Source of the DNA: Schmidtea nova
Taxonomy: Eukaryota
Assembly: GCA_044892505.1 (NCBI GenBank)
Contig: CM097882.1
Location: forward strand, 561,968,001 to 562,032,000
DNA length: 64,000 bases
Direction of reading: 5' to 3'
Below, one piece after another: positions 5,331-45,064 of this stretch; the stretch's first letter is position 1, and every line of letters begins with the position of its first letter. Under the pieces are notes generated by a model. It searched no databases and was not told where the DNA came from. It saw only the letters and a list, made by a program, of their open reading frames with translations. Both the position numbers and the translations under genes were made by a program.

Positions 5331-8195
5331 GCTTTGACTTTATTCTTTAATCAATATTCTTTGGCCTTTGAAACTTCTCGTCTGCTTGGCTTCCTTTGTC
5401 TTTGCAACACAATTTTTATCTCAGCTACTGATTCAATCAATAAGTTTCCTTTTGTGTATCAAATTTCTCCTTTCGCATTTCAAACTCGTTTCGTATTGTA
5501 TACGTCAATTTTTAATTTACCTCTGGTTCAGGTTTCAATCTTTTTCTTTGTCAATTTCAAATTCTCCACTAAATCTTGTCTACCACAATTTTTCTTACTC
5601 CCACAATTTCTGTCTACAATTCTTAAATGTTCTGTCTAAATTTTCTCTAAAATTTTCTCTAAAATTCTGTCTAAACATCTGCCTGCTTCTGCTGTACCTC
5701 TCCTTTTATATATCGTCAAATTTTATGGCACTAAAGATAATTTTGTTTTTTGCATTTTAATTCCCGGCCATCTCGTGTTTTTCCCCAATTCCTGTTTTAT
5801 CTATGACAGCTGTCTAGATGATTTTGGATTTCCCTTTTTTACTTTTGAGGCCGACTTTTATCCGCACTCCTGTTATCTGACAAGTTGTCAGGATTTTATT
5901 TTCTTACTTGTTTTTGTTTACGTTTTGAAAATTCCTTTCTCGTTTTTGTACTTATTAATTAGGAATGACCTTTGTTTTTTATTTCTTGTTTGATCCCTTT
6001 TGTTTGTTCCCAACTTCTCATCTTTCATTTCTTTTTATTTCCGTTTCCTTTTTCATGTTCCCATTGGCCACCTTCTTTGTCATGACGATTTTCCCCAGGT
6101 AATTTTATTTGTTTATTTATAAATTTGTTATTTAGATATCCTCAACAGTAAGAAAATTTTATTTTATTGGCTTGGCAGCCATAATATGTGAATTTTTGTA
6201 AATAAAAAGTTGGTATACTTAACCCATTATTTTTGCTGAATATTGGGATCCTAAACAAGTATTTTAATATTTTATGAATTTAGTATAATGGTCAGGGAGA
6301 TTTTTTCAGCTAATAACTCAAACTATATTTGTTATCGCTGATATTATACGCTTCCTGTCAGACTTGCATATTTCCCGTGCGAATTTGACCGACTGACGTC
6401 ACTTTCGAAATGTGACAGACCAAAGTAAACTTGTCAACAAAATAAAATATTTCAAAAAATAGTATTGTTGGGTTTTAATATTCGAGTCGGTACTCTCTGA
6501 CTCCTCGTGTCCCATTAATCGTAAATAACAAAAATAAACTCCCCAACGTATATTGAATTACAAAATATATCTTTCGACACAAATAATCAATAACTAAGTT
6601 TTAATGAGTTTGACCGATTCTCTGCTCGGTATTGATACTTTGTCAATTTGGTATAATAATGTTCCCCTTTTTTAGTCAATGCTTCTTTGATTCACCTCTT
6701 TTCTTTATTTATTAGATTCGCTTTTAATTCTCTTTTCGTTTTCGTCAGTATCTACTGATTCTATCTTTTCTTTTTCCCTCACTTCCTATTTTCTACTTTT
6801 CCTCCTTTTTTAGTCCAATTCCTTCGTGTCCCTAGCTGAGGCAAAATGCCAATTTGTTCTGATTTTCACCTTCCTTTTATACTCTTCCAAATCTGGATGA
6901 CAAATGGGTTTTGCTGAGCCAATCTCTCTTCCGATATTCAGCTCCACATCTCTGCCTCGGCTGTCATCCGGAATGGCCCGACCAATTAAAATAATTAATA
7001 GCCTGCCTTGGACTTCTCTACACATATTATCTCTTCTTGACCTAATCCCATTAATTATTGTGACCAGATAATGGGCCTAAATATTCCTTCTGTTTACTTT
7101 TCTCTTTGTTTACCCAGCTCGAGATTTCTTTCTCTTTGCTAATTAATTAATTAATTAATTCCTTTCCTTTTCTTGTTTTTAACTCCTAAGTACCTTTTCG
7201 CACCCTTCTTGACACTTTCTGAAAATTCCGTTATCACCATGTAATTCCTCGTTACTTGTTCCCCCCACGACCAATTTTCCAGATTTCAATTCGAACATTT
7301 AAATCTTTTATCGATTTTTCACAATTCACATTTTTGTGCTTTTCCCCATAATGATACACTTTCTGACGCTTTTGTTCTCTTTTTATTTCTTTACACTATC
7401 AATTCTATACCTGACTCGATTTTCACATCTCTCCTTCATTTTGTTATAAATATAATTTTATTTTGAATTTTATTAATTTATTTTATTACTTCAACAGTAT
7501 TCATCTATTAATTGATAAAAAATAGTATAAATATTTTTTTCGCCTTAAATACAACCTCAAATTTTTCATTTTTACCAATTTCGGGATAATTTACCCTGGT
7601 TCCTTGACCACTGTCTTAGAACTGCAAATAAAAAATTGATCCAATAATATTAATATTAATTGTTGTAAGACTAGATCGAAAAATCTTTTTTTTATTATTA
7701 TTTCATACACAAGTGACAAAGGCTGTGCTAAAACATCATCTTGTCCTTATAAACAAAATTTTGTTTGACCTAGTTTTAAAAAGATTAATATGAAAATTAT
7801 TGAAATTTAAAAAAAGATATTTGATATTTTATTCTAACCTAATGTATTAAAATATCAAAATAATTTCATTGCTGCAGAAATGAGTCAGGGAAATAGTGGG
7901 AAACAACTTATTCAAACATAAATTGAATCAACAATATATCTCGTGAAAAAAATTCCATTTGTCATGTGCAAATTTACAAAATATTTGTTAAAGGATAATG
8001 AAAAATACTTTTTTTGACATACTTGTTTTGTTTAAACGAAGACTGCCAAATACGACTTAACTCGTAATTAACATATCTGTATCAGTTAATGTGTTAACTT
8101 AAATTTTTTGTGAAAATTGAATTTAAAGATTCTCACTTAAAATTGCGATTTATTTTATTTTCGTTTCATTTCAAAATAGAGATAAATATATTTAA

Positions 8196-9581: not shown

Positions 9582-9587
9582 CTAATG
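9582..9587 (+). repeat. Left 6-bp target-site duplication CTAATG
   Basis: Abuts the AGT terminus; identical hexamer at 22682-22687. Confidence 0.9.
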
Positions 9588-10123
9588 AGTAGGTAGATGT
9601 GTCCGGTCTGGATCCGTATCAGTTATCGCGCGTTTTTTGGCGCCATTTTTAAAGTTTGATTTGTTTAAATGTATGGAATTTTTTATTATTATTTTTATTT
9701 TATTATTAAATTTTTTTTTTTAATTATTTTTTTTTTATTAATTAATTTTTTTTAATTAGTTATTTATATTTATTTTTTTTTAACTTATATTTATTAATAT
9801 TTTTTTTTATTTAGTTCTTTTTTTTTGTTAGTATTATTTATTGTTGTTATTATAATTTTTGAACCACTTCAATGATAAACGTTCAATGAAAACATTCATA
9901 AAAATAATATAAACATATAACAAAATGAGACGATTATACACAACATAAAATTACATAGTCAAATACGATAAATATTAAACTATTATTATTATTAATATTA
10001 CTATTATTTCTATGACATAACCACAGTTTCTAAAAACTATTACCCAAATTAAAAAACAGACTGAAACTAATCTGTACAATATATAACTAAATAAATGAAA
10101 AAACAAAGTTTTTCAACAAAATT

Positions 10124-13100
10124 TTATTTAAATAAAACTGTTTCTTCTTCAGTTTGACCTTGGAATTGTTGATCTGGATTGATTCTGGGTTCGGTATGTT
10201 GAAATATAACCAAGTCACCTCCCATAAAATGGCCATATGCCAAGCTTTTATTTTTCGCAACCCATTTCCTTTTATCATCTGCGTTTGTCAGTGCAGTCTT
10301 TTCATTTTTAATAGTAAAAAGTTGGTGATTTTTACTTGTGATTCTGGTTTGAGGAACAGAAAATATTTGGTTATTATTAAAACAGTCCAGGTACGACTGA
10401 TGCTTTATGTCAGTACCCGCTAATGTTGCCCCTTTAGCTTTATTAGTTTCCTCGTCACCTAAAAGACTATAACATTTAGGTCTAAGAAACACCCACTCCT
10501 CGTATTTAAGCCCTTTATTCTCGTCTTTGAACTTGCCAATGACAGAATCAAGGTTCCTACTATATAATGGGTGATTCGGATCATAATTAGAAGTGTCAAG
10601 TAAGTTATCTCTTATCATGGCCGGTAAAAGAATATCAAGCTTACAATTTCTAATCTCAAGAAAAAACGAATCGGTGTCACCAGCTACGATGTTAATTTCG
10701 CAGTTGAATTCGTTACGATATTTTTGTAACTCTTCATACTGCAGCTGGTACATTCTAAGTTTAGATAGATCCAGTACAGTTTGACCAATGTAGCTGGGTC
10801 TATCCAAACACACCGATTCCTGATTCAGCAAGACGGCAACCAAATCATCGTCAATTTCGAAAGTCCTTTTAAAAGTTGGCTTAGAAGTATATGTAATCAG
10901 CCTAGAAGCCGAATTACATAATCTTAAATTTATGCGCTTTTTAAGATTCTCTACGGTTTTACCGTAGAGACTATTATTTAATAATTTAAAATAATTTTTA
11001 CCCAGAGCATTACTTGATTCTGCTCTAAGTCTGGTATTGGTATCGATATAATCCTTAAAAATGCATGCTTGTTTAAATTTAATTGCCCTATGGACATGAG
11101 TTATTTTTACTCCAAGAGAAAGAAAAAGTTTGAGAAGTCTCCAATGAAGAACATAGTTCTTCTTGGGATAATGCGTAAGCATCAACTTCTCAACCTTTGA
11201 GCCAGGTGGACACATCTTTTCAGCGGCAACTGGCAAATCATCCAGCTTGTCGTGAATCGAATCAGGAATTTCTAAATAGACTTCTAATGTAAATCCAAAT
11301 GTTAATACTTCTAAATCAGCAGATTCACAGTAATAAATAATTTTATTTAATTTTTCCCTATCAGTTACCCATTTAAATTCTTTATAAGGTAGTTTTTGGC
11401 TTAAGGCCCACCCATATAAATTATTTATATCTATATAAAGAAGCTCAGTGTCGTCGGAGGATACTACATGGTGTTTGTTAACAAATGTTAACCCACCACG
11501 GATCCCCCCTTCGAAAAAATTATACATCTCCATATCTTGAAGCAACTCGATAGGAGATTTCAAAGTCATCAAAGCTGAATTCCATGACATGCCTGGAATT
11601 CCCAAGAAATTAAGAGGCTCAAGTCGGTTATGTGCAATGGATTTTGCCCTAAATTGCTGAAAAAAGTCGGCAAGTAAGAAAACATCCAATTTCAGGTATA
11701 ACATCATATAATCAAACAATGTTTCACAATTAAATTCATCCCATATTTGTTGAGCTTTTTCATACTCGTCGATTTTAACTCCTTCCCAAATCGGTGGGAA
11801 CTCGTATGTATTTTGTAAAACCTCTAAAGAAGTTGCAAAATTATATGGGAATATGCCTTTGGATGTAATAATAGTCCCTATAAATTCGGATGAAGTAAGA
11901 GGAAAATCTGTTAAAGTCTTTACAGCATCGTTTAAGCTACAGCTTACAAATTGGCAAGAATCGATAAATTTAATAGTTAAACTATCGACTCTTGCATATA
12001 AAGTCAAAAACTTTTCACTTGTAGTAGGAATACAACTTATATCCCATTTATCGAATTTATTTAAACCATACTTGAGGATATGATGCAAATCATATCCGCG
12101 TAAATTATGAAATATTACTGGCATGATGAATCTTATTTGCCGAGAAAAATTACATTTAGCGCAAGCCGCACCCAAGTATTTACCTGTATAATGGTCATGA
12201 TCTTTAACCGGATTTTTCAAAGGTTTATTACACAAATAACAAATTATAGAACTACGAAATGATCTTATTTGTGCAGGGGAAAGATATTCCATTTTCTTTT
12301 TGGAATTATTTATAAAGTAAGGTAAAACTAGTTTTTCTCCTATATCATTGATTTCGGTCAAAAACTCTTCTACACAGTTAAGACCATAAAAGCTTTTATA
12401 CGATTTTTCGCCAGTAAAGTTATTAATAAGCAACAAGCCAGCAGAAATAGGCAAGTGACGTTGAAAATACTTATCGTCCTTCGGTAAAACAGCCTCAAAA
12501 TCGGCATATACAACAAAAGGAGGGGTAACAATCTTTGACCAATCTTTAAATTCCAAGTTCTTATCCGAAGGCAAAGTATACAAAGTTGTACCTAACTGGT
12601 TTTTTGTGCATAAAGCCTGATGTTTCTCAAAAACTTCAGTCAATCTAAAACCATTCAAGCAACGCTCACACCAAATGCATCTTATCCTAACATTGGTAAC
12701 AGTAAGTGTGTCACAATTCAAAAGTCTATTAATATTAGTAACTCCTATATAATGAAAAGAGTCACTTTCCTCTAACAAAATCAAATTAATTGGAGTGCCA
12801 CCTACAACCTTTGACCTATGAATAATATCTACAAATGGATGTTTCATGACTTCATCCTCCTCATTAATATTATTTAGATCATACTCGTCATATGAAAGGA
12901 TATTTATAGCCAGTCCAGGGTTTTTCGCTTCAAATTTGGGGATATTACATACTTTCATTGGAAAATCAGAAGGATCAAACACAAGGTCTAAGGGATTATA
13001 ATTATAAGACTTACTTCTATTAGATTTCACATCCTTGTATTTTAAAATTGCCAAAATACTATATATAAAACACAAGTTATCTGTATTCTTTACATTGACA

Positions 13101-14501
13101 GTGCAATGTTTTGCATTTAATGATGGTGGAGTTGAACAAGAACCTTTACCGCTCAATCTACTTATTTGGGAATATTTTGTAAGTTTAAAGCTTATTTCTT
13201 TAATTTTATTTATTGACCAATTGCTGCCATTTTCGCAGACTTTAGTCATTTTTTCACTTAATAGAGCAATACCTTCATCTAAAAAGGTATCACTCATTGG
13301 TTTTGCAGAATTTGATATTATAAAAGATTGAAATTGCTTATTCTTTTCAAATTCTACATCAATGCAGAATTGAACTTTTACATACCCCATTTTGGAAATA
13401 ACTGAATTAAATTTATTTAATAAAGGTGAAGGAATAATTAATTTATTTAAATTTAAAGAATCCACATCCATTTTAACAATGGCATGGGATTTTTTCAAAT
13501 TATATTTAACCAAAGATTCAACAGAACCGCCATATTGGACAACATGCAAATTAGGAATAACTAAAACATCGTCATTTGATGAATGGACATCTTCATCATC
13601 AGATATTACATTTATTTTAGCCGGTTTAGGACAAACAATAACATTTCGTCGTTTACTTTTATTAATTAATGCGAAAAGACTTTTCTTAGTGCATGAGAAT
13701 TGATCTAAATGGAGATAATGTTGGAAATAAAAATCAATGTAATTTATATGTTGGGCGCTCTTACATGTGGGACATAAATAGAAGGTGACTTGATTATTTA
13801 TAAGACGATAGTATCGCTCCATTAACTTGTGGCAGTCGTTATGATTTGATGACTTACAATAATTCGGATAAAATTTACCTTAATATGAAATATCTTTAAA
13901 TTTATCAAAATATCATTAAAATAAATTAATAAAAAATATGAATTATTAGAAAATAAATATGAAACTTAAGATAAATATGATTTAAATATAATAATTACTA
14001 AAATAATTTAAATTTAATATAAAAATTATTACAAAATAATATTAAAGGAATTTGTTTAAATTAACTGTTTACGTAAAGTAAAGATTATTTAAATTATTAC
14101 AAAATATTACCAAAAATATATATTTACAAATATTTTACTATATTTATTTACTAAATTAATTAAAATAATTATCAAAATATAATTAAAATTAATCAATACT
14201 TACATTGAACATTCAATACCACATCAGGTATAACTCCATTATTCATAATATTCTCATTATCAACAATCTCAGCTTGTACGGTAGTTTGTTCAGTCATATT
14301 TACATCACCTAAAGTAAAAATTAAATAATATACTAATTTAATGATTAAATACCATTTTCTTCCGCATTTTCTAACATCGATTTCCCAATTGAATTATTGA
14401 TATTACCTAAATTAATACTAAATGATAATAAATTAAAAAATAAATTTACCGTTTTCTTTCCCACTTGGGTTTTCGTTCATAAAACTTGTTATCATGTTCA
14501 T
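10124..14501 (-). CDS. polB: Protein-primed family-B DNA polymerase, left copy; predicted exons 14501-14450, 14406-14353, 14308-14204, 13878-10124 (1321 aa; 1232 aa from the first ATG of the last exon)
   Basis: ExoI YADFEA, ExoII HNLRGYD, ExoIII YLKLD, PolA DINNLYG, PolB KLLNNSLYGK, PolC GDTDS, KCY; mirror image of the right copy. Confidence 0.93.
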
Positions 14502-14550
14502 TTTTAATGTTTATTATTTGTTAAAGTGAATAATGAATGAAAAAGGATTG

Positions 14551-14636
14551 TTTATATATCAAAGTTATTACACACACATAACCTTTGACCAATAAAAATT
14601 GAGTAAGGGGTAGGAAATTTATTCTTATTAGCCAAT
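14551..14636 (-). promoter_or_regulatory. Mirror copy of the polB promoter in the left arm
   Basis: Reverse complement of 17633-17718. Confidence 0.6.
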
Positions 14637-15039
14637 CAGAATCGAGTAAGAGGCAGTAAAGGTATTATTATCATCAAATAGAGAAATGATAGAGAATTAT
14701 GACTAATCATATATTACGTTGCAGTATTTTAAAAAAACTAGAAAAGTTATTTCAACAAATTATAATACACATCAAAGTTATAAAATATTTCAATGAATTG
14801 CATGCATGTCATATGATTAAAATATATTAGACTAAATATTTCAGAAAATTACGTCTAAATTATATTACATTTCAATAATTACGTCAGTTATAAAAAATAT
14901 TTTAATTAATTTTGATAAAATACATTAGAATTGTCAATAACACACACAAAACCTTTATAATTTTCATTAGTATAGAAAATTAAATTATATCTACACATGA
15001 TTACAATAAATATTCGATAAATCTATGCTAAATAGTATT

Positions 15040-15718
15040 ACAAAACACGTGTGCATCACAAACATATCAATATACTTAATTTTGAATCAAGCCATTTTAT
15101 AGATATTTAAATTTTATTTATATGTAATTACAATGAAAACTCACTAAAGTTATTTTAAATAACTAAAACTTACAAAATTAATTACAAAACACGTGTGTAA
15201 CACGAAAAACGACAACATTTACATTTTGAATCAAGCCATTTTATAGGAAATTAAATTTTATATATACTTTATTACAATGAAAAGTCAATAAATTTATTTT
15301 ATATACATGAAAAACGCAAAATTAATTACAAAACACGTGTGTAACACCAAAAACGTCAACTTTTAGATTTTGAATCAAGCCATTTTATAGCAATTTAAAT
15401 TTTATCTATACTTTATTACAATGAAAAGTCAATAAATTTATTTTATATACACGAAAAATGCAAAATTAATTACAAAACACGTGTGTAATACAAACACACT
15501 AACAAAATAATTTTCTAATCAAGCCATTTTATAGGAAATTAAATTTTACTTATACTTTATTACAATGAAAACTCAATAAATTTATTTTATATACACAAAA
15601 AATGCAAAATTAATTACAAAACACGTGTGTATTACAAAATACGACATCTTTCAGATTTCTAATAAAGCCATTTTGTAGACATTTAAATTTTATACATATA
15701 ATATTACAATGAAAACTC
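15040..15718. repeat. 144-bp tandem repeat array, left (about 5 units)
   Basis: CACGTG at 15046, 15190, 15334, 15478, 15622; GCCATTTT at 15091, 15235, 15379, 15523, 15667. Confidence 0.95.
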
Positions 15719-16140
15719 TGCCGCCCCCCATGTGTGAACTCATATATTTTTTTATTAAATTTAAAATAAAATTTCATATTTAAAAAAAAATTAAAACAAA
15801 AAAGTCATATGATTAAAACAAATAGTCCATTTAATTTAAACAAAAATTCACTTAATTTAAACAAAATTCACTTAATTTAAACAAAAAATTCACTCAATTT
15901 AAACAAATATATGAAATTACGTAATTATATATAAAATTACATAATTATCGGGCTTTATTAAGCACACTTGATTATGTAATGGTTACGTAATCATGTGTGC
16001 TACATAAATACCCGAGCGATTACGTAATATACACACATGGGGGTAGTGGTTCAGTGCGCTCATAGCCTCCTACTACAAGACTTTAAACGCCTTTTTCGAG
16101 TCAATAAACCGGCCGATCGATTTTTTAGTGAAACAATAGA
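15719..16140. other. Unique central segment with nested inverted and direct repeats (candidate origin, hairpin end or resolution site)
   Basis: CCCCCATGTGTG (15725-15736) / CACACATGGGGG (16032-16043); 18-bp stem 15962-15979/15983-16000 with 2 mismatches and a 3-nt loop; about 3.7 copies of a 20-22-bp repeat at 15831-15910. Function is inferred. Confidence 0.6.
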
Positions 16141-17230
16141 TAGACAGAATTTTATTGTCTACAAAATGGCTGAATTAAAAATTCAAAATGTTGTGTATAT
16201 TGTTGTGCACACGTGTTTTGTCATTAAATTTGTATATTTCACCTAAATAAAATAACTTTTTTGAGTTTTCATTCAAATATTATATAGATAAAATTTAATT
16301 GTCTACAAAATGGCTTTATTAGAATTCTGAAATTTGTCGTATTTTGTGATGCACACGTGTTTTATTTTGAATTTTCAAATTTTTAACAATATAAAGTAAC
16401 TTTATGTATTTTTCATTGTAATAAAGTATAAGTAAAATTTAATTTCCTATAAAATGGCTTGATAAGAAAATTAGTTTGTTGGTGTGTTTGTAATGCACTC
16501 GTGTTTTGTAATTAATTTTACATTTTTCATGTATATAAAATAACTTTTTTGAGTTTTCCTTGTAATATTATATGTATAAAATTTAAATGTCTACAAAATG
16601 GCTTTATTAGAAATCTGAAAGATGTCGTATTTTGTAATACACACGTGTTTTGTAATTAATTTTGCATTTTTTGTGTATATAAAATAAATTTATTGAGTTT
16701 TCATTGTAATAAAGTATAAGTAAAATTTAATTTCCTATAAAATGGCTTGATTAGAAAATTATTTTGTTAGTGTGTTTGTATTACACACGTGTTTTGTAAT
16801 TAATTTTGCATTTTTCGTGTATATAAAATAAATTTATTGACTTTTCATTGTAATAAAGTATAGATAAAATTTAAATTGCTATAAAATGGCTTGATTCAAA
16901 ATCTAAAAGTTGACGTTTTTGGTGTTACACACGTGTTTTGTAATTAATTTTGCGTTTTTCATGTATATAAAATAAATTTATTGACTTTTCATTGTAATAA
17001 AGTATATATAAAATTTAATTTCCTATAAAATGGCTTGATTCAAAATGTAAATGTTGTCGTTTTTCGTGTTACACACGTGTTTTGTAATTAATTTTGTAAG
17101 TTTTAGTTATTTAAAATAACTTTAGTGAGTTTTCATTGTAATTACATATAAATAAAATTTAAATATCTATAAAATGGCTTGATTCAAAATTAAGTATATT
17201 GATATTTTTGTGATGCACACGTGTTTTGTA
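16140..17230. repeat. 144-bp tandem repeat array, right (about 8 units, inverted relative to left)
   Basis: CACGTG at 16210, 16354, (16498 CTCGTG), 16642, 16786, 16930, 17074, 17218. Confidence 0.95.
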
Positions 17231-17632
17231 ATACTATTTAGCATAGATTTATCGAATATTTATTGTAATCATGTGTAGATATAATTTAATTTTCTATACT
17301 AATGAAAATTATAAAGGTTTTGTGTGTGTTATTGACAATTCTAATGTATTTTATCAAAATTAATTAAAATATTTTTTATAACTGACGTAATTATTGAAAT
17401 GTAATATAATTTAGACGTAATTTTCTGAAATATTTAGTCTAATATATTTTAATCATATGACATGCATGCAATTCATTGAAATATTTTATAACTTTGATGT
17501 GTATTATAATTTGTTGAAATAACTTTTCTAGTTTTTTTAAAATACTGCAACGTAATATATGATTAGTCATAATTCTCTATCATTTCTCTATTTGATGATA
17601 ATAATACCTTTACTGCCTCTTACTCGATTCTG

Positions 17633-17718
17633 ATTGGCTAATAAGAATAAATTTCCTACCCCTTACTCAATTTTTATTGGTCAAAGGTTATGTGTGTGTA
17701 ATAACTTTGATATATAAA
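17633..17718 (+). promoter_or_regulatory. Candidate Pol II promoter of right polB (two reversed CCAAT boxes plus TATA)
   Basis: ATTGG at 17633-17637 and 17676-17680, TATATAAA at 17711-17718, predicted ATG at 17768. Confidence 0.6.
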
Positions 17719-17767
17719 CAATCCTTTTTCATTCATTATTCACTTTAACAAATAATAAACATTAAAA

Positions 17768-20700
17768 ATGAACATGATAACAAGTTTTATGAACGAAAAC
17801 CCAAGTGGGAAAGAAAACGGTAAATTTATTTTTTAATTTATTATCATTTAGTATTAATTTAGGTAATATCAATAATTCAATTGGGAAATCGATGTTAGAA
17901 AATGCGGAAGAAAATGGTATTTAATCATTAAATTAGTATATTATTTAATTTTTACTTTAGGTGATGTAAATATGACTGAACAAACTACCGTACAAGCTGA
18001 GATTGTTGATAATGAGAATATTATGAATAATGGAGTTATACCTGATGTGGTATTGAATGTTCAATGTAAGTATTGATTAATTTTAATTATATTTTGATAA
18101 TTATTTTAATTAATTTAGTAAATAAATATAGTAAAATATTTGTAAATATATATTTTTGGTAATATTTTGTAATAATTTAAATAATCTTTACTTTACGTAA
18201 ACAGTTAATTTAAACAAATTCCTTTAATATTATTTTGTAATAATTTTTATATTAAATTTAAATTATTTTAGTAATTATTATATTTAAATCATATTTATCT
18301 TAAGTTTCATATTTATTTTCTAATAATTCATATTTTTTATTAATTTATTTTAATGATATTTTGATAAATTTAAAGATATTTCATATTAAGGTAAATTTTA
18401 TGCGAATTATTGTAAGTCATCAAATCATAACGACTGCCACAAGTTAATGGAGCGATACTATCGTCTTATAAATAATCAAGTCACCTTCTATTTATGTCCC
18501 ACATGTAAGAGCGCCCAACATATAAATTACATTGATTTTTATTTCCAACATTATCTCCATTTAGATCAATTCTCATGCACTAAGAAAAGTCTTTTCGCAT
18601 TAATTAATAAAAGTAAACGACGAAATGTTATTGTTTGTCCTAAACCGGCTAAAATAAATGTAATATCTGATGATGAAGATGTCCATTCATCAAATGACGA
18701 TGTTTTAGTTATTCCTAATTTGCATGTTGTCCAATATGGCGGTTCTGTTGAATCTTTGGTTAAATATAATTTGAAAAAATCCCATGCCATTGTTAAAATG
18801 GATGTGGATTCTTTAAATTTAAATAAATTAATTATTCCTTCACCTTTATTAAATAAATTTAATTCAGTTATTTCCAAAATGGGGTATGTAAAAGTTCAAT
18901 TCTGCATTGATGTAGAATTTGAAAAGAATAAGCAATTTCAATCTTTTATAATATCAAATTCTGCAAAACCAATGAGTGATACCTTTTTAGATGAAGGTAT
19001 TGCTCTATTAAGTGAAAAAATGACTAAAGTCTGCGAAAATGGCAGCAATTGGTCAATAAATAAAATTAAAGAAATAAGCTTTAAACTTACAAAATATTCC
19101 CAAATAAGTAGATTGAGCGGTAAAGGTTCTTGTTCAACTCCACCATCATTAAATGCAAAACATTGCACTGTCAATGTAAAGAATACAGATAACTTGTGTT
19201 TTATATATAGTATTTTGGCAATTTTAAAATACAAGGATGTGAAATCTAATAGAAGTAAGTCTTATAATTATAATCCCTTAGACCTTGTGTTTGATCCTTC
19301 TGATTTTCCAATGAAAGTATGTAATATCCCCAAATTTGAAGCGAAAAACCCTGGACTGGCTATAAATATCCTTTCATATGACGAGTATGATCTAAATAAT
19401 ATTAATGAGGAGGATGAAGTCATGAAACATCCATTTGTAGATATTATTCATAGGTCAAAGGTTGTAGGTGGCACTCCAATTAATTTGATTTTGTTAGAGG
19501 AAAGTGACTCTTTTCATTATATAGGAGTTACTAATATTAATAGACTTTTGAATTGTGACACACTTACTGTTACCAATGTTAGGATAAGATGCATTTGGTG
19601 CGAGCGTTGCTTGAATGGTTTTAGATTGACTGAAGTTTTTGAGAAACATCAGGCTTTATGCACAAAAAACCAGTTAGGTACAACTTTGTATACTTTGCCT
19701 TCGGATAAGAACTTGGAATTTAAAGATTGGTCAAAGATTGTTACCCCTCCTTTTGTTGTATATGCCGATTTTGAGGCTGTTTTACCGAAGGACGATAAGT
19801 ATTTTCAACGTCACTTGCCTATTTCTGCTGGCTTGTTGCTTATTAATAACTTTACTGGCGAAAAATCGTATAAAAGCTTTTATGGTCTTAACTGTGTAGA
19901 AGAGTTTTTGACCGAAATCAATGATATAGGAGAAAAACTAGTTTTACCTTACTTTATAAATAATTCCAAAAAGAAAATGGAATATCTTTCCCCTGCACAA
20001 ATAAGATCATTTCGTAGTTCTATAATTTGTTATTTGTGTAATAAACCTTTGAAAAATCCGGTTAAAGATCATGACCATTATACAGGTAAATACTTGGGTG
20101 CGGCTTGCGCTAAATGTAATTTTTCTCGGCAAATAAGATTCATCATGCCAGTAATATTTCATAATTTACGCGGATATGATTTGCATCATATCCTCAAGTA
20201 TGGTTTAAATAAATTCGATAAATGGGATATAAGTTGTATTCCTACTACAAGTGAAAAGTTTTTGACTTTATATGCAAGAGTCGATAGTTTAACTATTAAA
20301 TTTATCGATTCTTGCCAATTTGTAAGCTGTAGCTTAAACGATGCTGTAAAGACTTTAACAGATTTTCCTCTTACTTCATCCGAATTTATAGGGACTATTA
20401 TTACATCCAAAGGCATATTCCCATATAATTTTGCAACTTCTTTAGAGGTTTTACAAAATACATACGAGTTCCCACCGATTTGGGAAGGAGTTAAAATCGA
20501 CGAGTATGAAAAAGCTCAACAAATATGGGATGAATTTAATTGTGAAACATTGTTTGATTATATGATGTTATACCTGAAATTGGATGTTTTCTTACTTGCC
20601 GACTTTTTTCAGCAATTTAGGGCAAAATCCATTGCACATAACCGACTTGAGCCTCTTAATTTCTTGGGAATTCCAGGCATGTCATGGAATTCAGCTTTGA

Positions 20701-22145
20701 TGACTTTGAAATCTCCTATCGAGTTGCTTCAAGATATGGAGATGTATAATTTTTTCGAAGGGGGGATCCGTGGTGGGTTAACATTTGTTAACAAACACCA
20801 TGTAGTATCCTCCGACGACACTGAGCTTCTTTATATAGATATAAATAATTTATATGGGTGGGCCTTAAGCCAAAAACTACCTTATAAAGAATTTAAATGG
20901 GTAACTGATAGGGAAAAATTAAATAAAATTATTTATTACTGTGAATCTGCTGATTTAGAAGTATTAACATTTGGATTTACATTAGAAGTCTATTTAGAAA
21001 TTCCTGATTCGATTCACGACAAGCTGGATGATTTGCCAGTTGCCGCTGAAAAGATGTGTCCACCTGGCTCAAAGGTTGAGAAGTTGATGCTTACGCATTA
21101 TCCCAAGAAGAACTATGTTCTTCATTGGAGACTTCTCAAACTTTTTCTTTCTCTTGGAGTAAAAATAACTCATGTCCATAGGGCAATTAAATTTAAACAA
21201 GCATGCATTTTTAAGGATTATATCGATACCAATACCAGACTTAGAGCAGAATCAAGTAATGCTCTGGGTAAAAATTATTTTAAATTATTAAATAATAGTC
21301 TCTACGGTAAAACCGTAGAGAATCTTAAAAAGCGCATAAATTTAAGATTATGTAATTCGGCTTCTAGGCTGATTACATATACTTCTAAGCCAACTTTTAA
21401 AAGGACTTTCGAAATTGACGATGATTTGGTTGCCGTCTTGCTGAATCAGGAATCGGTGTGTTTGGATAGACCCAGCTACATTGGTCAAACTGTACTGGAT
21501 CTATCTAAACTTAGAATGTACCAGCTGCAGTATGAAGAGTTACAAAAATATCGTAACGAATTCAACTGCGAAATTAACATCGTAGCTGGTGACACCGATT
21601 CGTTTTTTCTTGAGATTAGAAATTGTAAGCTTGATATTCTTTTACCGGCCATGATAAGAGATAACTTACTTGACACTTCTAATTATGATCCGAATCACCC
21701 ATTATATAGTAGGAACCTTGATTCTGTCATTGGCAAGTTCAAAGACGAGAATAAAGGGCTTAAATACGAGGAGTGGGTGTTTCTTAGACCTAAATGTTAT
21801 AGTCTTTTAGGTGACGAGGAAACTAATAAAGCTAAAGGGGCAACATTAGCGGGTACTGACATAAAGCATCAGTCGTACCTGGACTGTTTTAATAATAACC
21901 AAATATTTTCTGTTCCTCAAATCAGAATCACAAGTAAAAATCACCAACTTTTTACTATTAAAAATGAAAAGACTGCACTGACAAACGCAGATGATAAAAG
22001 GAAATGGGTTGCGAAAAATAAAAGCTTGGCATATGGCCATTTTATGGGAGGTGACTTGGTTATATTTCAACATACCGAACCCAGAATCAATCCAGATCAA
22101 CAATTCCAAGGTCAAACTGAAGAAGAAACAGTTTTATTTAAATAA
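17768..22145 (+). CDS. polB: Protein-primed family-B DNA polymerase, right copy; predicted exons 17768-17819, 17863-17916, 17961-18065, 18391-22145 (1321 aa)
   Basis: Same motifs in an uninterrupted 1232-aa ORF; three phase-1 GT-AG introns (43, 44, 325 nt) join upstream exons in frame (52+54+105+3755 = 3966 nt); AATAAA at 22141-22146 overlaps the stop. Polymerase identity is more certain than the 5' exon model. Confidence 0.93.
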
Positions 22146-22681
22146 AATTTTGTTGAAAAACTTTGTTTTTTCATTTATTTAGTTATATATTGTACAGATT
22201 GGTTTCAGTCTGTTTTTTAATTTGGGTAATAGTTTTTAGAAACTGTGGTTATGTCATAGAAATAATAGTAATATTAATAATAATAATAGTTTAATATTTA
22301 TCGTATTTGACTATGTAATTTTATGTTGTGTATAATCGTCTCATTTTGTTATATGTTTATATTATTTTTATGAATGTTTTCATTGAACGTTTATCATTGA
22401 AGTGGTTCAAAAATTATAATAACAACAATAAATAATACTAACAAAAAAAAAGAACTAAATAAAAAAAAATATTAATAAATATAAGTTAAAAAAAAATAAA
22501 TATAAATAACTAATTAAAAAAAATTAATTAATAAAAAAAAAATAATTAAAAAAAAAAATTTAATAATAAAATAAAAATAATAATAAAAAATTCCATACAT
22601 TTAAACAAATCAAACTTTAAAAATGGCGCCAAAAAACGCGCGATAACTGATACGGATCCAGACCGGACACATCTACCTACT

Positions 22682-22687
22682 CTAATG
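22682..22687 (+). repeat. Right 6-bp target-site duplication CTAATG
   Basis: Abuts the ACT terminus; identical to 9582-9587. Confidence 0.9.
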
Positions 22688-30707: not shown

Positions 30708-32302
30708 TATTTACATTAATAAGTAACAAATAAAAATAAATAAATAAAAATAAATAAATGCGTACGCAAAACTGAAATTTGTAAAATGATTTTTAAATGC
30801 TGCAAACTAAATTAGATATGTTAAATAATTAATAACAAATTTAAAGCAAATGATTTAATATTCAATTAATGCTGCTACCAAGAAATCAACATTTTATACT
30901 AAATTAGATAAGAAAATAATTTCGAAAGTGATTTGGAAATTATTTTCTATTTTGATATAGAATTATGGTTGTTTTTTATTGATAAATATGGTTTAATTAA
31001 AGTATTTATAATTGCTTTAATATTTTTTGATAATTTTGAGATTAAAATTTAAATAAATATTTCAAATGTTAATTACAACAGCAATTTTTATTGGTGATTG
31101 AATTCGTTAAGAATGCTTATAATGAAATAATTATTTACCAGATTCAAATGATAAGGGGAATTTAATAAAGTTTAACGGAATGTTGTTTAAGACCTTTATA
31201 AAGCAGAATAAAGAGAGATATTTGAAAAGAAGATAATAATAATAGAAAATAAATAAATTTAAAAATGAATAAAAAGAATGTCATCATTAATTAACAATTG
31301 GAAATTGGAAAAAAATATATCAAAAATATCTCCACAACTCCAATACTTATCAAAAGGGTTGATAAATATCAGAACTGTGCAGGCATAACAAAAGTTGAAT
31401 TTGACCACCAAAATTATTGGAAAAAGAAAAAAAGCAATTGCATACTCTACAACATAATGGAGGCATATTGGTAAATTATTGAGAGGTTTGAGAATGCAGT
31501 GAAAATGGAAATTATTATTGAGTATAGGAATTTTAAAGTAATTTAGTAAAATCCAAATTGATAGATATTTAACTTTGTGTGAATTTTTGTAAATTAAAAA
31601 GAAATTGTGAAGTCAAGGTAAAGAAAGCAACGACACCAATTTAATCAAGATATTAAACGTGAGACGGTAACCAAGTGCTTGTAAATCTGAGTTCTATCCA
31701 AATGAGCTATTCTTTACAGAACATTGTGATAAAATTTGCAAACTGTTGAGGTATCTAATCAATTTTTGTAGTTGTGATCAGTAAATCCAAGTTTGGATCG
31801 TAACTGGTCTGATAAATAAACGTTTAAATTATTCAAAATTAGTTACTGTTATTAAACAAAGTACGATTGGAGTCCAGATCAACAGTTATTAATTATTAAT
31901 TCCACTGACAATAAGTAGTTTAATTTAAAAATAGTGAAAAATGATAACAGTACTTCTTTTCTATCTCTGATCAATTTATATAATAACCGAGCTAACCGTA
32001 CAAAGGTGGGATTTTATTTTTGTTTATAATAAGTAAGTAACAAATTACTAAATTATATTAAATGTTTAAAAATAATATTAACAAAAAAGCAGTTCAAAGT
32101 TCCATAATTAAATTATAAATTGATTAAACTGTTGAATATCTTAAACATGTGCCATCGAATATAAAGTGATCAGAGGAAAATATTGTTTTGAGATTTTTAA
32201 GACTATTTCAAACAAAATATGTAATAATAATAATAATAATTAGTATTATTTATTATAATTATTATTATTAAAAATAATTAATTTAACTTAAATAATATTT
32301 AA

Positions 32303-36132: not shown

Positions 36133-39100
36133 CTTGTCATATTTACAGATTTTGATCTGTCTGTGACAGCTTTAATGATTTTATTTTTTGCAAATGAATC
36201 GGAAACCTGAATCAGAAAAAAATTTTTATTGATAAAAATTTGATAACTCTAACCTCAATCGCTCTGTGGAGAATATTATCGGAGATATTGACAAATCTTG
36301 CTGCCTGAATAGCATGACTGCATTCAATATGACCATCAACCAATTGGTATAAATATATTAATTGACTGTTTTTGTCTTCAATAATATTGAAATTCTATCA
36401 ACCATATCATTTGTACTTCACAATATTTATCTCACTTTAAACTGAACCTTCGGCAGATCTTGGATAAGAGAAAATAATCTATGAAAATGAGTAACTAGAA
36501 ATATATGGGGACAATCAGATTTCTTTGCTACCATAAACCGAAGAAAAGCTACAATCAAAGAAATTCCTGACTTCTAAGAAATTAAAAAGAATCAAAAAAA
36601 ATACAAAAAATGCGTGAAAAATCACAAAAACTGAAATAGAATTGTCATTACCATCTCTTATTCTCACCATTAATCTTTTCGTTTCTATTTCAGAAATTTT
36701 CATTATTTTTATAAAAACGATATATCAATAGTTTTTTATTATAAAGTTACACGAATTTTGGGCACAGCTTTTTTTGAGTACACCCATGAAATAGGCTGGG
36801 CCGATAATTCATGTAACTTTATAAAAAAAATATTGACCTATTGTCGTTTTAAAAATAATAAAATGCTATTGTTATAAATTTATAAAACGTATATGGTTTT
36901 AAAATTTGTAAATTTCTAACTCCTTTACTGCCTTGCGTACAAATATCTTCATTCTTCGAAGGAGTGATTGCTAGCATATTTATAGTCAGTTGCTTGGTAT
37001 GACTTTAATTGAATGAATCGCTGTTGTTATATTCTGCCATGTTCATATAAATGATAAACCCCCTAAAGTATACTGATGAATAACAACTAATTTCTTGCAT
37101 AATCACTTCGTGCACTATCAGAGACTCGGTCAATTTGCTGTGGGAAATCTTGACTCTTCACGTTGTAACATTAACAACAACAATAATACCTTTCCATGAT
37201 TTCAAAATCTCCTTTAATTTATTTATCAAATTCTTTTTCAAATTCTTTATTTTATTCCAGCAAACGTGATTTCTGTAATTTTGCTCCCGTTTTTAAGGTT
37301 CAATAATCTTATGATTGCTGGCTCATTTTGCTTCTACCGATTTTCTAGGCATGGAAAGATAGCTAGTTAACATCAAGGATTCACTTATTTAGCTTCCAAG
37401 CGCCCATTAACCATGTTATTATAACTACCCTAGAAAATCCATTTTATTTGCTCACTAGTTTGCTTACATACTTATCTTTTAATCTGATTTACATAACTAA
37501 CTAATTAAAAATTATCTATTTTAACATATTTTAACAATTCGTTTTCATCTCGTTATTCGTCATCATTAACTCTATTCCTAACATATTTTACAAATTTTTA
37601 ATCCAATAAATAATTGATTATCTTTTGGTTTCACCTTTAATCTCTTTTTTTAACTCAATAATTTTCATATTAATTTTTGTAGGACTAAATTAAATTTGTT
37701 TTTGTAAAGACACGATATTTTGGCAAGGCCTTTAGCAACATTTTTATACACACTTGATAAAGGCTATGTCGAAATATGGTGTCCTGAAAATAGGTTTTGA
37801 TCTATAGTCTTACAAAAGTAAATATGAAAATTATTGAAGCTGAAAATATAGACTATTAATAAGATGTCCTGTTAAATAATTAACAGTATTTAGCTGTAAA
37901 AACAACTGATTTGCAAAAATTTTAGTCAGAGTGCAATAATCCGAAATAAACCTACGTTTCTATGAATATTGATTTTTTGCAGCCCACCTAAAGTTAAACC
38001 TTGTTTGTTTGGCCCAAGTTCGCCTATGAGTTTGACACCCTTGAGTTAAAGGGTTTCTTCACAACTTAAAAATGTTTTTTTTAAATATTTTTCTAATTCT
38101 TAAATCAATTTTTGAATTTTAAGCACAAAAACTTAATCGTTTTTTAAAATTTTAGCTCATAAAACCAATTTATTTTTTAGAAAGATGCTTTTGCTCTATT
38201 ACGCTTCGTTTTCGAATCTATAACTTGACTAATTTTTTGTTTTATAACTCCGTCTGATCTTACTTTTCATTTTATACTTTTCACCGCGTCTTGCAAGAGT
38301 AACGGAATTTTAAATTACAGTGTTATAATAATTGAGAACATAAATTCAGTATATATCTCGAGGAGATGTATAACAATATGATTTTAAAGACTCCCTTCAA
38401 TGAGTGAGCTGAAGTTTATCCGGATGAGATTTAGAAAATATCTATTCATATATGTTATACTATTATTGTAAGGAAAGGTTATATTATTAAACCCTTTCAA
38501 TACGACTTTTGATCAGCGAATTTGTTTATATGTAAATGATAAAGATTTGTATCTACGTCTCTATAATTCATAAGAATTCATAAATCCCATTCAAATGCAT
38601 AATAAATGTAACATTAAAAATCAGAAGTTTTTAAACATATCTCGGGATGTATGGCAGCACCGAAAAGGTCAAATTAAATTCATCCATTATATGAAAAGAC
38701 AAAATGTCCGTAATATGGGCGAGAATAACAACTTTAAATTGTATTAATTAATAAATAAGTAACAAAATAGGCCTTTGCTGCAAAAATAATTTTCTCACTT
38801 AATAAAATTATTTTTGCAGCAAAGGCTTATTTTGTTACTTATTTATTAATTAATTTAATACTTAATGCTGCTACCAAGGAATCACCATTTTAAACTTTAA
38901 ATTGTGTATTTATATAATAAAATTATAATAAAATATAACGTTCCATCTTATTATATTTTATAGAAGAAATTGTTTTGGGAAAAAAGTTTACGTTTTCTAC
39001 AATTACAAGTTATTTTGATTTTCTTAAAATTCTGTTTAAGATAGAATATTGAGACAATATGGAAATCGTTAAAATTTTCAACCTTCTTCACCTTTGACTT

Positions 39101-42100
39101 TTGATCTTTTTGTATCATTTTTCAAACAATAGATCAAAAACTTGGGTTAATTAGGTGAAAAAAACAATTTTTGATCTATTGTTTGAAAAAATTGAAAATT
39201 AACAACAAGGAAAATATAATCAATATAAATAGTAATAGTACAAAATTAATATTTTAAGATAAAGCTAAAACTAATATTTTATTACTTTTATTAACACGTT
39301 GCTCACAGGAGACGCTAATTCCAGTTATATGTACTTTAGGCTGTATCGTGAAAAAAACAAAAACTACTATTAACTGACGCGTATTAGTGTCTCCAGTCAC
39401 CAACAGTTGGAAAATGAAAGACGCCAATCCGCGTTTCCAGTGAGTAATTTGTAAAAATAACTTACCATTTCAGCTCCTTTTCCAAATTCATCAATCAAAA
39501 TTGTTGAATGTGCGTTGGACTTTTTACAGCAAAGTGATATTTGATTAAGATCTACCATGAAAGTTGATAATCCAGATAAACTTGATTCTATAGACTTAAG
39601 CCTTGTCAAAAGGGCGTTTTGAGGAGTTAATATCATCTTAGTAGCCGGAACAAAACTTCCAATCTGAGCTAATACAATTAAAATTCCTATCTATAATGCA
39701 ATAATAACTCCATGAATGCCACCATAATTCTACATGCCTGTTTAAGATAAACACTTTTCCCAGATCCATTGGCACCGGATATAATAGTTAGTTTACCATC
39801 CCAATCATTGGAGTATGTTGAATTAGGTATAAATGGATCGGAATAGACTTCTTGCAGTGGATGCCTAGAGAATATTGATGCACTGTTTTTTTCTACTAGA
39901 TTTGTTACCTTCCATTTTCAATTTTAATTTCACCATTTGTATCGAATGAAGGCCGTGAGCCCTCTATCTGTCTGGCCGCTATGGCTAAAGACAGCAAACT
40001 AATAAATTGTGAATATGAACATAAAACAAATAAATATACCAGTCTAATTCTAATACTAAGTCAAAACAATTCAAAAGCATATGAGTATATTCAAGAATAC
40101 TTTCTTGTAAACAATGCATTATTGAAGTTTCCAGATCTAAAATCATATTTGTACCAAGTTAATATTATAAATTATTTGACTATTTAAAAATCAGAAATAG
40201 TTAATATAGATCAATAAAGATCAATAAATTTGTGCCTAGATTTAATTAATTGAATCATTGTCATCGGATCAGAAATATATCTGCTATCTTCGATCAATGG
40301 TAGACAAAAAATAGAATTAACCGTTGGACTACCAATTTTATATTTAAATATTTAATGTTTTTTAGTATGTGTTTTGTACATGTTATGTATGCTTATCACA
40401 GTTTATTCATGTATGGTTTTATATCAAATGAAAAAAAGGATCAAATTTGGGGGCATGGGCGTACGTGCCCCGTGGAGTTTACTGGTTGCAATCATATGTC
40501 CCAATGGGGTTCTAGCCAAAAGATTAATCAAATCATTTGTGCGTAAAAGGTTTATCCTGAAAAAAACAACCATTAGTGTATATAATATTTTATTTTGGAA
40601 AAGCGTATATAAACAGTTTACATAATGAAAATTAATCTTGATTTTACCAAAGAAATTGGTGATAAATAGCTGCTTCCTCCAAAAATCATAAAATTCCTTC
40701 AATCTAGGTAGAGTTTTGAGAACAAACATCGCGCGGTTTATCACAAACCATTTGGGATGCATATTGTGAGTTTTATAATCGCTATTTTACCATTGGGGTT
40801 GTATTAGCCATGTGCCGTTTATTCTTACTGATATTTCATTGGATTATATTGAAAATAATTTGGAAAGGTATTTTTTACCGAAATAAGTATTAAACCTAGA
40901 AAACATGGAGGTGACCAGTGGTTCAACTTAGTTTTAGATAATAATCTCTTCCCTATTGAAATGTGATAATGTTTGTTATTTGATTCTAAATTACTAATTG
41001 GATAAGTACTTGATTGTTCAAAAATAATTTTGTGTTGATCTTATCACTGTACACAATTAGAATATCAATGAAATAATAGTAAATGAAATAATAATAAAAC
41101 AAGTAATAATCTGAATTATTATATAAAATTAAATTTTTAAATAAATAAAATTCCGTTAAAAAATCATTAGCCACGCCTATTAAAATACGACAGAACTTTC
41201 CTTCCAACCTAAAATCTTAAATTAATTAATAAATTTGTATAATTTTTTAAATCTAGTTTTATTAAAGCTAGATTATCCTCGTTTTTATTTGTTTTTATAA
41301 TGTTCCGAATATCATTTACTCGAGTACTTTTTATGCTATAATATTTGGTGGGACAAGTTTCTCGGAAATGTTTTAACACATTCCAAACTATGATGATTTA
41401 ATGAATTTGTTTCAAATAAGTATCTGCTAACATCGAACAAGATGGAATTTATTTAAAAGATAAAAGTTCAGAATTCCAATACCGTTTCATGTATCAATAT
41501 TACGAAAGATACTGATAAAGATTAGACTACCGTCTTAACCCGAAAATAACACCAAGGTGTTATGTTTGAATATAAGACTACTCTGGTGTTTTATTCACAT
41601 ATAACACCATGGTGTTTTAAAATACTTTAATGTAATAACTTTTTTTTTATATATTGATATGCATATTCTCCATCCACCTTTAAAAGCTTTATTTCAACCA
41701 TCTTTTGACATTACTATCTGGAATGAATTATATGCATCTGAGTATGTTACACCTGAAAACGATGATATAAATGAAGAAAAATATCAACCACCAGAATGGT
41801 ACTTACCAGATTCAAATACTGCAAACTTTTATATGTGTGTACACCACAAGAAATATGGTAATCAATAGTGCATCCAATACCGGTATCATTTTTCAATATC
41901 GGAATTTCGGTATTGAAAAATTTCAACACCGGTAATAGCGGAAAATACCGGTATTGAAACTTTAAAAAAATAATTAAAATATGATTAAAATATGATTAAA
42001 ATCTCATATAAATAGTAAAAATTTACAGTGATTCAATAAATTTTTTTATTTTATATCAAAATACAGACTTTTTTAATTTTGTGCTTTTTTCTCCTTTGTA

Positions 42101-44987: not shown

Positions 44988-45064
<77 letters not shown>

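Follow-up and report, generated by a model that had tools for sequence, protein, structure and literature searches.

Nuclease inserts of the type described here are already known, having been published for DNA polymerases of a single large Polinton group. PolB proteins of Caenorhabditis, 15 in number, were found to carry the motif and were placed in a resolvase clade, and what the insert does in such polymerases is stated in print as an open question (PMC6083498). The alignment in that study places the motif directly ahead of the ExoII sequence (FHNLxGYD), as in the pPolB presented below. An HNH insert was also described in nematode and oomycete pPolB2 and deemed unique to those (10.1101/2023.08.22.554363), and a weak endonuclease VII match is recorded for both moth (Spodoptera) Maverick polymerases in Table 3 of PMC5803895, where the elements concerned also carry integrase, ATPase and protease genes. 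Such inserts are regarded as invasions by homing nucleases in PMC11161782, and the available sections of PMC11296320 and PMC11071296 contain nothing on a nuclease insert.

The locus studied here lies within a 64,000-nt stretch of Schmidtea nova contig CM097882.1 (positions 561,968,001 to 562,032,000; hereafter the window), and all coordinates refer to this stretch (Table 1). Analysis of the window delimited an element of 13,094 bp (9588–22681), in which each arm comprises a whole polymerase gene pointing outwards, resulting in two head-to-head genes, and in which both 144-bp repeat arrays terminate in the same phase at a unique core. Twelve of the 14 CACGTG sites in the window are found inside the element. 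The terminal inverted repeats, AG...CT ends and a target duplication within the 5–8 bp range that characterise Polintons are all present. The two polymerase ORFs were the only ones of at least 100 aa starting from ATG in the element, no stop-free frame above 72 codons was detected elsewhere in it, and integrase (rve), packaging ATPase, protease and capsid genes were all absent within its borders. Likewise, no Rfam family was found in the element, and a search of plasmids gave no match. As the genes for integrase, ATPase, protease and capsid are missing, the element is best explained as a non-autonomous derivative, rather than an autonomous Polinton/Maverick, and the six mismatches between its arms point to a recent insertion or to homogenisation.

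Table 1 Coordinates of the features discussed, given as positions in the 64,000-nt window.
Feature	Positions	Strand	Remarks
Target-site duplication CTAATG, left copy, 6 bp	9582..9587	+	
Left arm (terminal inverted repeat), 6.13 kb	9588..15718		starts AGTAGG
Second pPolB ORF	10124..13822	-	one residue different (position 1159)
Mirror copy of nuclease motif	12149..12241	-	identical peptide
Mirror of predicted 5' extension	13823..14501	-	predicted
Left 144-bp repeat array, 5 units	15037..15718	-	mirrors the outer five right units
Unique core, 397 nt	15719..16115		12-bp inverted pair 15725-15736/16032-16043, 22-bp repeats and hairpin inside
Right 144-bp repeat array, 8 units, 7 with CACGTG	16116..17232	+	inner three without mirror copy
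Right arm	16551..22681		6 mismatches in 6132 compared positions against the left arm; ends CCTACT
Predicted spliced 5' extension	17768..18446	+	exons 17768-17819, 17863-17916, 17961-18065; acceptor 18390
pPolB ORF, 1232 aa from first ATG	18447..22145	+	terminal-protein-like, vOTU-like, exonuclease with insert, polymerase
Endonuclease VII-type (DHHRN) zinc-finger / beta-beta-alpha-metal core, C528-N558	20028..20120	+	profile, model, alignment
Arg561, three residues past N558	20127..20129	+	possible Arg compensation, hypothesis
Target-site duplication CTAATG, right copy, 6 bp	22682..22687	+	

An assembly fold-back artefact was considered as the origin of the palindrome and rejected, as the repeat stops exactly at Polinton-like ends flanked by a 6-bp duplication; the unlike flanks, the six arm differences and the asymmetric centre of the assembled sequence also contradict it. 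A search of the open-access literature returned no palindromic, polymerase-only Polinton, and passages of two 2026 preprints describe short terminal palindromes or mosaic replicases and not the present layout. As far as the literature searched shows, the palindromic polymerase-only carrier is thus a new variant and a more unusual feature than the insert itself.

Within pPolB, Ser200 was assigned as candidate linking residue of a terminal-protein-like domain and C251 and H357 as residues of a vOTU-like protease, all three being conserved in all ungapped alignment rows. In the model, Ser200 lies between a helix and the last strand of the N-terminal domain, the same placement as described for the linking residue in PMC11161782, from which the names of both domains were inferred. 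An Atlas search with residues 1–240 returned unnamed clusters only, all under 0.8. The exonuclease and polymerase motifs are intact, and a model of residues 95–1210 (pLDDT 91.0) showed phi29 polymerase as closest fold (E 1e-19); sequence and model together predict a complete replication machinery. Placement in pPolB2/Alpha PolB, based on the shared insert position and on PF03175 matches in many relatives, is only suggestive. Upstream of the gene, two reverse CCAAT boxes were found along with the 144-bp repeats. The introns predicted there (43, 44 and 325 nt) are GT-AG, about 90% AT and all in phase 1, and joining the predicted exons yields a 1321-aa frame free of stops. The two short ones resemble a 44-nt intron (39865–39908) in a host MutS-family gene of the same window, and the polymerase gene seems adapted to host splicing.

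The motif itself reads CYLC-x8-K-DHDH-YTGKYLGAA-CAKCN (residues 528–558) and is inserted between ExoI (D441/E443) and ExoII (N573–D578), with N558 and ExoII 15 residues apart. Translation of both strands confirmed this peptide, its location and the mirror copy as given in the original prediction, which had interpreted the motif as an intact endonuclease VII-like module inside the polymerase. A search with the Pfam profile Endonuclease_7 gave the sole Pfam match of the 1232-aa protein; its E value of 1.3e-4 is in line with that interpretation, but the score of 22.2 bits lies just below the curated cut-off of 23.6. Three endonuclease VII families of PHROGs were matched as well (E 5.6e-5 to 1.1e-3). 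A family-style motif pattern, composed post hoc after viewing the family alignment, was recovered in none of 20,000 shuffled versions of the protein; within the window it occurred only in the two copies, and by this measure the motif exceeds chance expectation. Weak tblastn matches in phage genomes (E 2e-3 or worse) were annotated as endonuclease in 21 of the 30 listed cases. Searching solved structures with the single sequence of either the insert or the whole protein revealed no relative, and the corresponding profile search gave Hpy99I at E 0.036 only.

An AlphaFold2 model of residues 485–575, built from 90 sequences, predicted the insert with a pLDDT of 95.2 and two strands (539–542 and 549–553) followed by a helix (555–560), H542 closing the first strand and N558 residing within the helix. 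The same placement of His and Asn is described for Hpy99I and T4 endonuclease VII (PMC2699513). These two enzymes were also the best structural matches among 48,161 chains, Hpy99I with Z 5.8, an rmsd of 3.0 and 59 aligned residues and T4 endonuclease VII with Z 4.6, an rmsd of 3.3 and 60 aligned residues; the ranks below were mostly occupied by HNH nucleases. Foldseek likewise returned both on top at E 0.18 and 0.38, with nothing at E 0.001 or better for the insert in the PDB and viral libraries. Such structural scores are modest (Z under 8), as expected for 60 residues. With sequence and predicted structure in agreement, the assignment as a beta-beta-alpha-metal fold of the endonuclease VII/DHHRN type is supported, and profile, PHROGs and model all speak for the family membership originally proposed, including the fold on which that proposal depended. 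A homodimer prediction for residues 425–735 scored 0.00 in two runs without alignment and was counted neither for nor against dimerisation.

Alignment with T4 gp49 equates its zinc ligands C23, C26, C58 and C61 with C528, C531, C554 and C557, corresponding to the N-terminal CX2-4C and C-terminal CX2C pairs of the DHHRN family, and further pairs D40 with D541, H41 with H542, H43 with H544 and N62 with N558. D541 and N558 are putative metal ligands and H542 a putative general base. The description of the motif as intact accordingly needs qualification: all four Cys, the DH and the N are retained, but the equivalent of T4 Arg54 is replaced by Leu550. Arg561 occupies the position of T4 Glu65. The Arg54 equivalent was found in all 313 motif proteins of PMC6083498, in which mutation of this residue in F-CphI abolished both binding and cleavage, while D, H and N were shown to be essential in Hpy99I (PMC2699513).

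Among 120 listed relatives, H542 and C557 were conserved throughout (120/120 each) and N558 in 119, with position 541 occupied by D (90), E (19) or H (11), i.e. by an acidic residue in 109 of 120. H542 and N558 belong to the 84 of 769 alignment columns conserved at 99% or more. This conservation argues for selection on the presumed active-site residues, although that of H and N could instead reflect a structural need. Position 550 is Arg in 37 of the 120. Within the top 73 relatives, 550 is Arg in just two and Leu, Ile or Met in 68, whereas 72 have Arg at 561; among the remaining 47, Arg occurs at 550 in 35 and at 561 in one. The top 73 also retain D541 (71 D, 2 E), an invariant H542 and N558 (72/73). 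In a clade further removed, the D40 position is taken by His (the 11 of 120 mentioned above) and both arginines are absent. In a wider set of 150 listed relatives, 18 lacked ExoII and four were left unparsed; 96 of the remaining 128 carry Arg at position 550, and 123 of 128 have exactly one basic residue among positions 550 and 561.

A tree calculated without the insert from 159 of 270 sequences shows nine and eight changes for the two traits. Of the independent pairs (n = 7), about three went in the predicted direction and none opposed it (p about 0.25). A Fisher test of the arginine swap (p 2e-17) was dropped, as it is inflated by relatedness with only 3–9 changes on the trees. The possibility that Arg561 stands in for the Arg54 equivalent is therefore presented as a hypothesis, a lead that is phylogenetically underpowered. 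The swap represents a new variant, as far as the open-access literature searched shows.

Of 7,999 candidates scored, 2,892 were full-length relatives, and a search with the ExoI–ExoII segment returned 2,999 clusters at 50% identity, although seeding with the insert biases the latter towards insert-bearing proteins. The motif was parsed in 128 of the 132 ExoII-including relatives (of 150 listed) and, among the 120 top relatives, essentially all contain the insert, its position being fixed down to about 30% identity. In genome_contigs, six of 13 loci match the motif pattern; most others do not cover the region, and one, L009, covers it without a pattern match. At another locus, L008, an insert with its Arg kept is adjoined by an rve integrase (E 7.8e-7, below the curated cut-off), and the 17.8 of 21.9 kb examined contained no inverted repeat of at least 40 nt. 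The L008 contig was binned in a bacterial MAG. Judging from these relatives, the insert is much more widespread than published. As it also occurs in gene-rich, non-palindromic elements such as L008 and the moth Mavericks, it is independent of the palindrome, and its inheritance together with the polymerase, predating the palindromic layout, appears to be the best explanation. That such insertions belong to a lineage of Polinton-type pPolBs, as originally stated, is borne out by the Caenorhabditis and moth polymerases.

The expectation that the element can form cruciforms held only in part. A small imperfect hairpin in the core (15916–16028) culminates in an 11-bp perfect stem with a 3-nt loop (15980–15982), and the core folded far better than its shuffles over 461 nt (z -5.5, 0 of 100 as good), with the 150-nt tip reaching z -5.6 against a best value of -4.5, attained by a segment inside the ORF, among 52 other windows of the element. 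This hairpin signal is strong but not unique. For the long arms the case is weak: 832 nt separate them, a distance that out-of-register pairing of the extra repeats would shorten to about 400 nt, and the hairpin tip is displaced by about 150 nt from their axis. Since a 9-bp spacer already reduces inverted-repeat breaks in yeast by 80% (PMC8053094), the long arms would be unlikely to extrude from duplex DNA, while a single strand of the element would be expected to snap back readily.

Taking these observations together, we favour, at a probability of about one half, the interpretation of the insert as a module of Polinton ancestry that is tethered to the polymerase and nicks single strands. A single zinc-stabilised, Mg-dependent unit, in which D541 and N558 hold the metal and H542 activates water, would cut one strand of the DNA presented by the polymerase, such as flaps, snap-backs, and mismatched or branched strand-displacement intermediates, with Arg561 possibly replacing the missing Arg. 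Such nicking would serve as clean-up, unlike the symmetric cuts that a junction resolvase makes in pairs. We infer catalysis, substrate and monomeric action alike, and cleavage of branched replication intermediates, also named in the original prediction, remains the most plausible putative activity. A point against nicking is the arginine that is universal in the 313 published proteins (PMC6083498) and found in just two of 73 top relatives. In an alternative reading, the insert is catalytically weak or dead in the present subclade and has been retained for DNA binding or for structure, as a module of the exonuclease domain stabilised by zinc. The Leu, Ile or Met at this position in 68 of 73 top relatives, the loss of both binding and cutting in the equivalent F-CphI mutants (PMC6083498) and the tolerated erosion in the distant clade with His at the D40 position are consistent with it, and a fold does not demonstrate function. 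We nevertheless regard this reading as unlikely, given that the D, H and N essential in Hpy99I are kept in the 73 relatives and that 72 of them carry Arg561. A homing-type or competition nuclease, which nicks or once nicked a specific duplex site (e.g. in rival elements or in polymerase alleles without the insert), thereby spreading its polymerase type, appears rather improbable. The motif is indeed used by F-CphI and by enzymes that introns encode within polymerase genes of phages (PMC6083498), capture from a group I intron or invasion by an intein has been proposed, and an HNH-bearing pPolB is reported to have replaced another type in nematode Polintons (10.1101/2023.08.22.554363; PMC11161782). 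On the other hand, the insert of about 60 residues is modelled without an extra specificity domain, the Caenorhabditis copies fall into the resolvase clade and not the endonuclease clade (PMC6083498), and the constancy of its site, even in relatives of only about 30% identity, resembles domestication.

Turning to the role first proposed for the insert, junction resolution consists of two coordinated cuts by a dimer. Two polymerases would pair via their inserts and, by resolving a cruciform formed by the central hairpin, split the palindromic 13-kb duplex into two molecules of 6.5 kb, each protein-capped at one end and closed by a hairpin at the other. Pairing is conceivable, as Hpy99I and T4 endonuclease VII dimerise similarly around the active-site region (PMC2699513), and the grouping of the Caenorhabditis copies with resolvases (PMC6083498), the well-folding core with its 3-nt loop, the repeat arrays ending in phase at this core and the contigs of some relatives, which recur near the length of one arm or near 12.6 kb, would fit such a role. 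The analysis did not bear it out, and we consider it very unlikely. The same motif serves the homing endonuclease F-CphI and the restriction enzyme Hpy99I (PMC6083498), and T4 endonuclease VII acts as an interwoven dimer, the N-terminus of one subunit meeting its partner's C-terminus (PMC10956419), whereas only residues 7–67 of its 157 align here and residues 68–157 lack a counterpart. The domain occurs equally in elements of ordinary layout and, being a general trait of the polymerase family, is not adapted to the palindrome. The conserved Arg is missing in the subclade, the arms are separated by 832 nt with the hairpin tip off their axis and a perfect stem of 11 bp only, and other close relatives reside on contigs of 11–16 kb and 27–32 kb. 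Moreover, protein-primed replication needs no cut, and hairpin and duplex forms could interconvert through protein-primed synthesis alone. Admittedly, the nicking and resolvase readings differ partly by degree, since T4 endonuclease VII itself nicks many branched substrates (PMC10956419).

The replication of the element may be envisaged along the same lines. Protein-primed strand displacement regenerates both ends of a linear replicon without cutting. A model of this kind is restated in 10.64898/2026.07.28.741278. Following excision, the terminal-protein domain would prime synthesis at either of the identical ends, and the displaced strand would fold into a 6.1-kb panhandle that restores the duplex origin without any cut, so that we infer a replication route in which the element itself provides for protein-primed synthesis, starting at either of two identical ends. 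Given the 6-bp duplication and the lack of an integrase gene, its integration would have required the integrase of another Polinton, acting in trans. Most simply, the layout would have arisen by copying one arm onto the other via the inverted 144-bp arrays.

Contig sizes of relatives were compared with the length of one arm (6131 nt) and of arm plus centre (6963 nt). In cluster P0013, eight of 15 contigs measure 6035–6068 nt and five 7145–7172 nt; in P0008, three of eight measure 6673–6674, two 7285–7286 and two 12,577–12,578 nt; and in P0002, five of 14 measure 5700–5725 nt. Against a family pattern, 12 of 15 listed members of P0005 are located on contigs of 10.9–16.3 kb, and ten further clusters displayed no clear pattern in contig sizes. 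The recurring sizes could also result from ordinary repeat breaks. The strong core hairpin, the in-phase arrays, the splicing-adapted gene and contigs of about 5.7–6.7, 7.2 and 12.6 kb are the hints of a family. Rather than a one-off rearrangement, the element could represent, in integrated form, a hitherto unrecognised family of eukaryotic linear replicons, palindromic, about 12–13 kb long and with polymerase as their only gene; irrespective of any resolvase role, this is perhaps possible, if doubtful. The same family combined with a resolvase insert is highly improbable; in it, a duplex dimer would alternate with half-length molecules bearing one protein-primed and one hairpin end, and the insert with its relocated arginine would cut the central hairpin junction.

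With respect to significance, the carrier matters more than the motif. A palindromic Polinton derivative that is intact, recently inserted and equipped with polymerase alone would be the counterpart, in a eukaryotic nucleus, of copy-back defective genomes and of hairpin plasmid derivatives, and Polinton replication could be studied on it as a minimal natural substrate. The arginine swap adds a testable twist and gives no answer on function. If the resolvase reading were true, a single protein would prime, copy and resolve its own genome.

Comparable layouts are known from protein-primed linear plasmids, of which the F1 and F2 forms of pGKL1 are palindromic/hairpin deletion derivatives; kalilo has reportedly given rise to a derivative of the same kind. 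In these fungal, extrachromosomal replicons, as in the present element, one replicon end is said to be duplicated as an inverted dimer with hairpin and duplex forms possible, whereas the element is integrated with a target duplication. With Polintons/Mavericks (Group 2, Alpha-type PolB; adintoviruses) it shares the 6-bp target duplication, the length of 13 kb, AGT-type ends one base from (AGT)2, and a pPolB with terminal-protein-like and vOTU domains. In contrast to Polintons, its polymerase gene is doubled and lies inside the repeats, integrase, ATPase, protease and capsid are lacking, and the inverted repeats extend over 6.1 kb, compared with 46–1,447 bp (PMC8097293) or 100–1,500 bp in published Polintons. 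The predicted introns likewise differ from the intronless ORFs of intact vertebrate Mavericks (PMC8097293).

At the level of the insert, those of nematode (including Caenorhabditis), oomycete and Spodoptera pPolBs share with the present one the motif, its place directly ahead of ExoII and the fold class. The 15 Caenorhabditis rows each have Arg in the conserved columns of the machine-read alignment, whereas the present subclade carries Leu, Ile or Met there, an Arg three residues past the Asn, and a carrier without integrase or virion genes. Hpy99I, the best structural and profile match, has the catalytic D, H and N in common with the insert, but Hpy99I and F-CphI possess extra DNA-recognition domains, specific duplex sites and the conserved Arg. 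T4 endonuclease VII (gp49) shares the two CxxC pairs, the D40/H41/H43/N62 equivalents and the beta-beta-alpha core and differs in Arg54 and Glu65, which have become Leu550 and Arg561; the profile alignment covers residues 7–67 and the structural alignment residues 2–81 of its 157, the C-terminal 90 residues being unmatched. Finally, T4 endonuclease VII is a free interwoven dimer, whereas the present insert is embedded in a polymerase of 1.2–1.3k residues.

The element at 9588-22681 is, over its entire length, a near-perfect palindrome of 13 kb that carries two complete polymerase genes without any other gene, and this palindromic, polymerase-only organization is arguably more unusual than the nuclease motif embedded in the polymerase. 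The unique core could serve as an origin or as the core of an enhancer, or it could be a small element that inserted there. The introns predicted in the 5' part of the polymerase gene would add 89 residues to the protein, forming an acidic and Asn-rich stretch.

Features in and around the palindromic element
Feature	Position	Strand	Remark
Three spliceosomal introns, 5' part of Polinton-type polymerase gene	17768-18446; mirror 13823-14501	+; -	prediction only
Unique core: 12-bp inverted pair, 22-bp tandem repeats, strong imperfect hairpin	15719-16115
Short repeat family, three copies	30849-30900, 38738-38896, 53880-53964
Ser/Asn/Lys-rich ORF, 281 aa	32303-33148	-
Host MutS-family mismatch-repair gene, exons	about 39400-61519	-	Pfam MutS_III and MutS_V
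Intronless ORF, 303 aa	45194-46105	-
Broken LTR retrotransposon	about 50573-53391	+

The exons of the MutS-family gene are scattered across at least 22 kb, separated by 44-nt introns as well as by long introns containing mobile elements, and what appears to be a 47-nt GC-AG intron is located near 39690-39736. The 281-aa ORF, for which no family match was found, is probably a large host exon. Searches of Pfam and PHROGs returned no credible match for the 303-aa ORF, which is flanked by inverted-repeat elements (44533-44991 and 46527-46958) and adjoins an (AT)35 run. Pieces of the LTR retrotransposon encode gag-like, reverse transcriptase, RNase H and integrase segments in separate frames, and their order is gypsy-type. 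The short repeat family resembles MITEs; one of its copies forms a 56-nt inverted repeat whose halves lie 10 nt apart.

Contigs carrying Polinton-type polymerases (L002-L013) are assigned to bacterial and archaeal MAG bins; as one insert-bearing contig (L008) also encodes an rve integrase, they probably stem from eukaryotic viruses and were binned incorrectly. In 11 polymerase relatives (P0099-P0101, P0103, P0105, P0106, P0109, P0110, P0112, P0114 and P0116) the metal-binding Asp (T4 D40) is replaced by His and both arginines (the T4 Arg54 and the Arg561 positions) are absent; these relatives possibly carry the insert in a His-liganded or inactive version.
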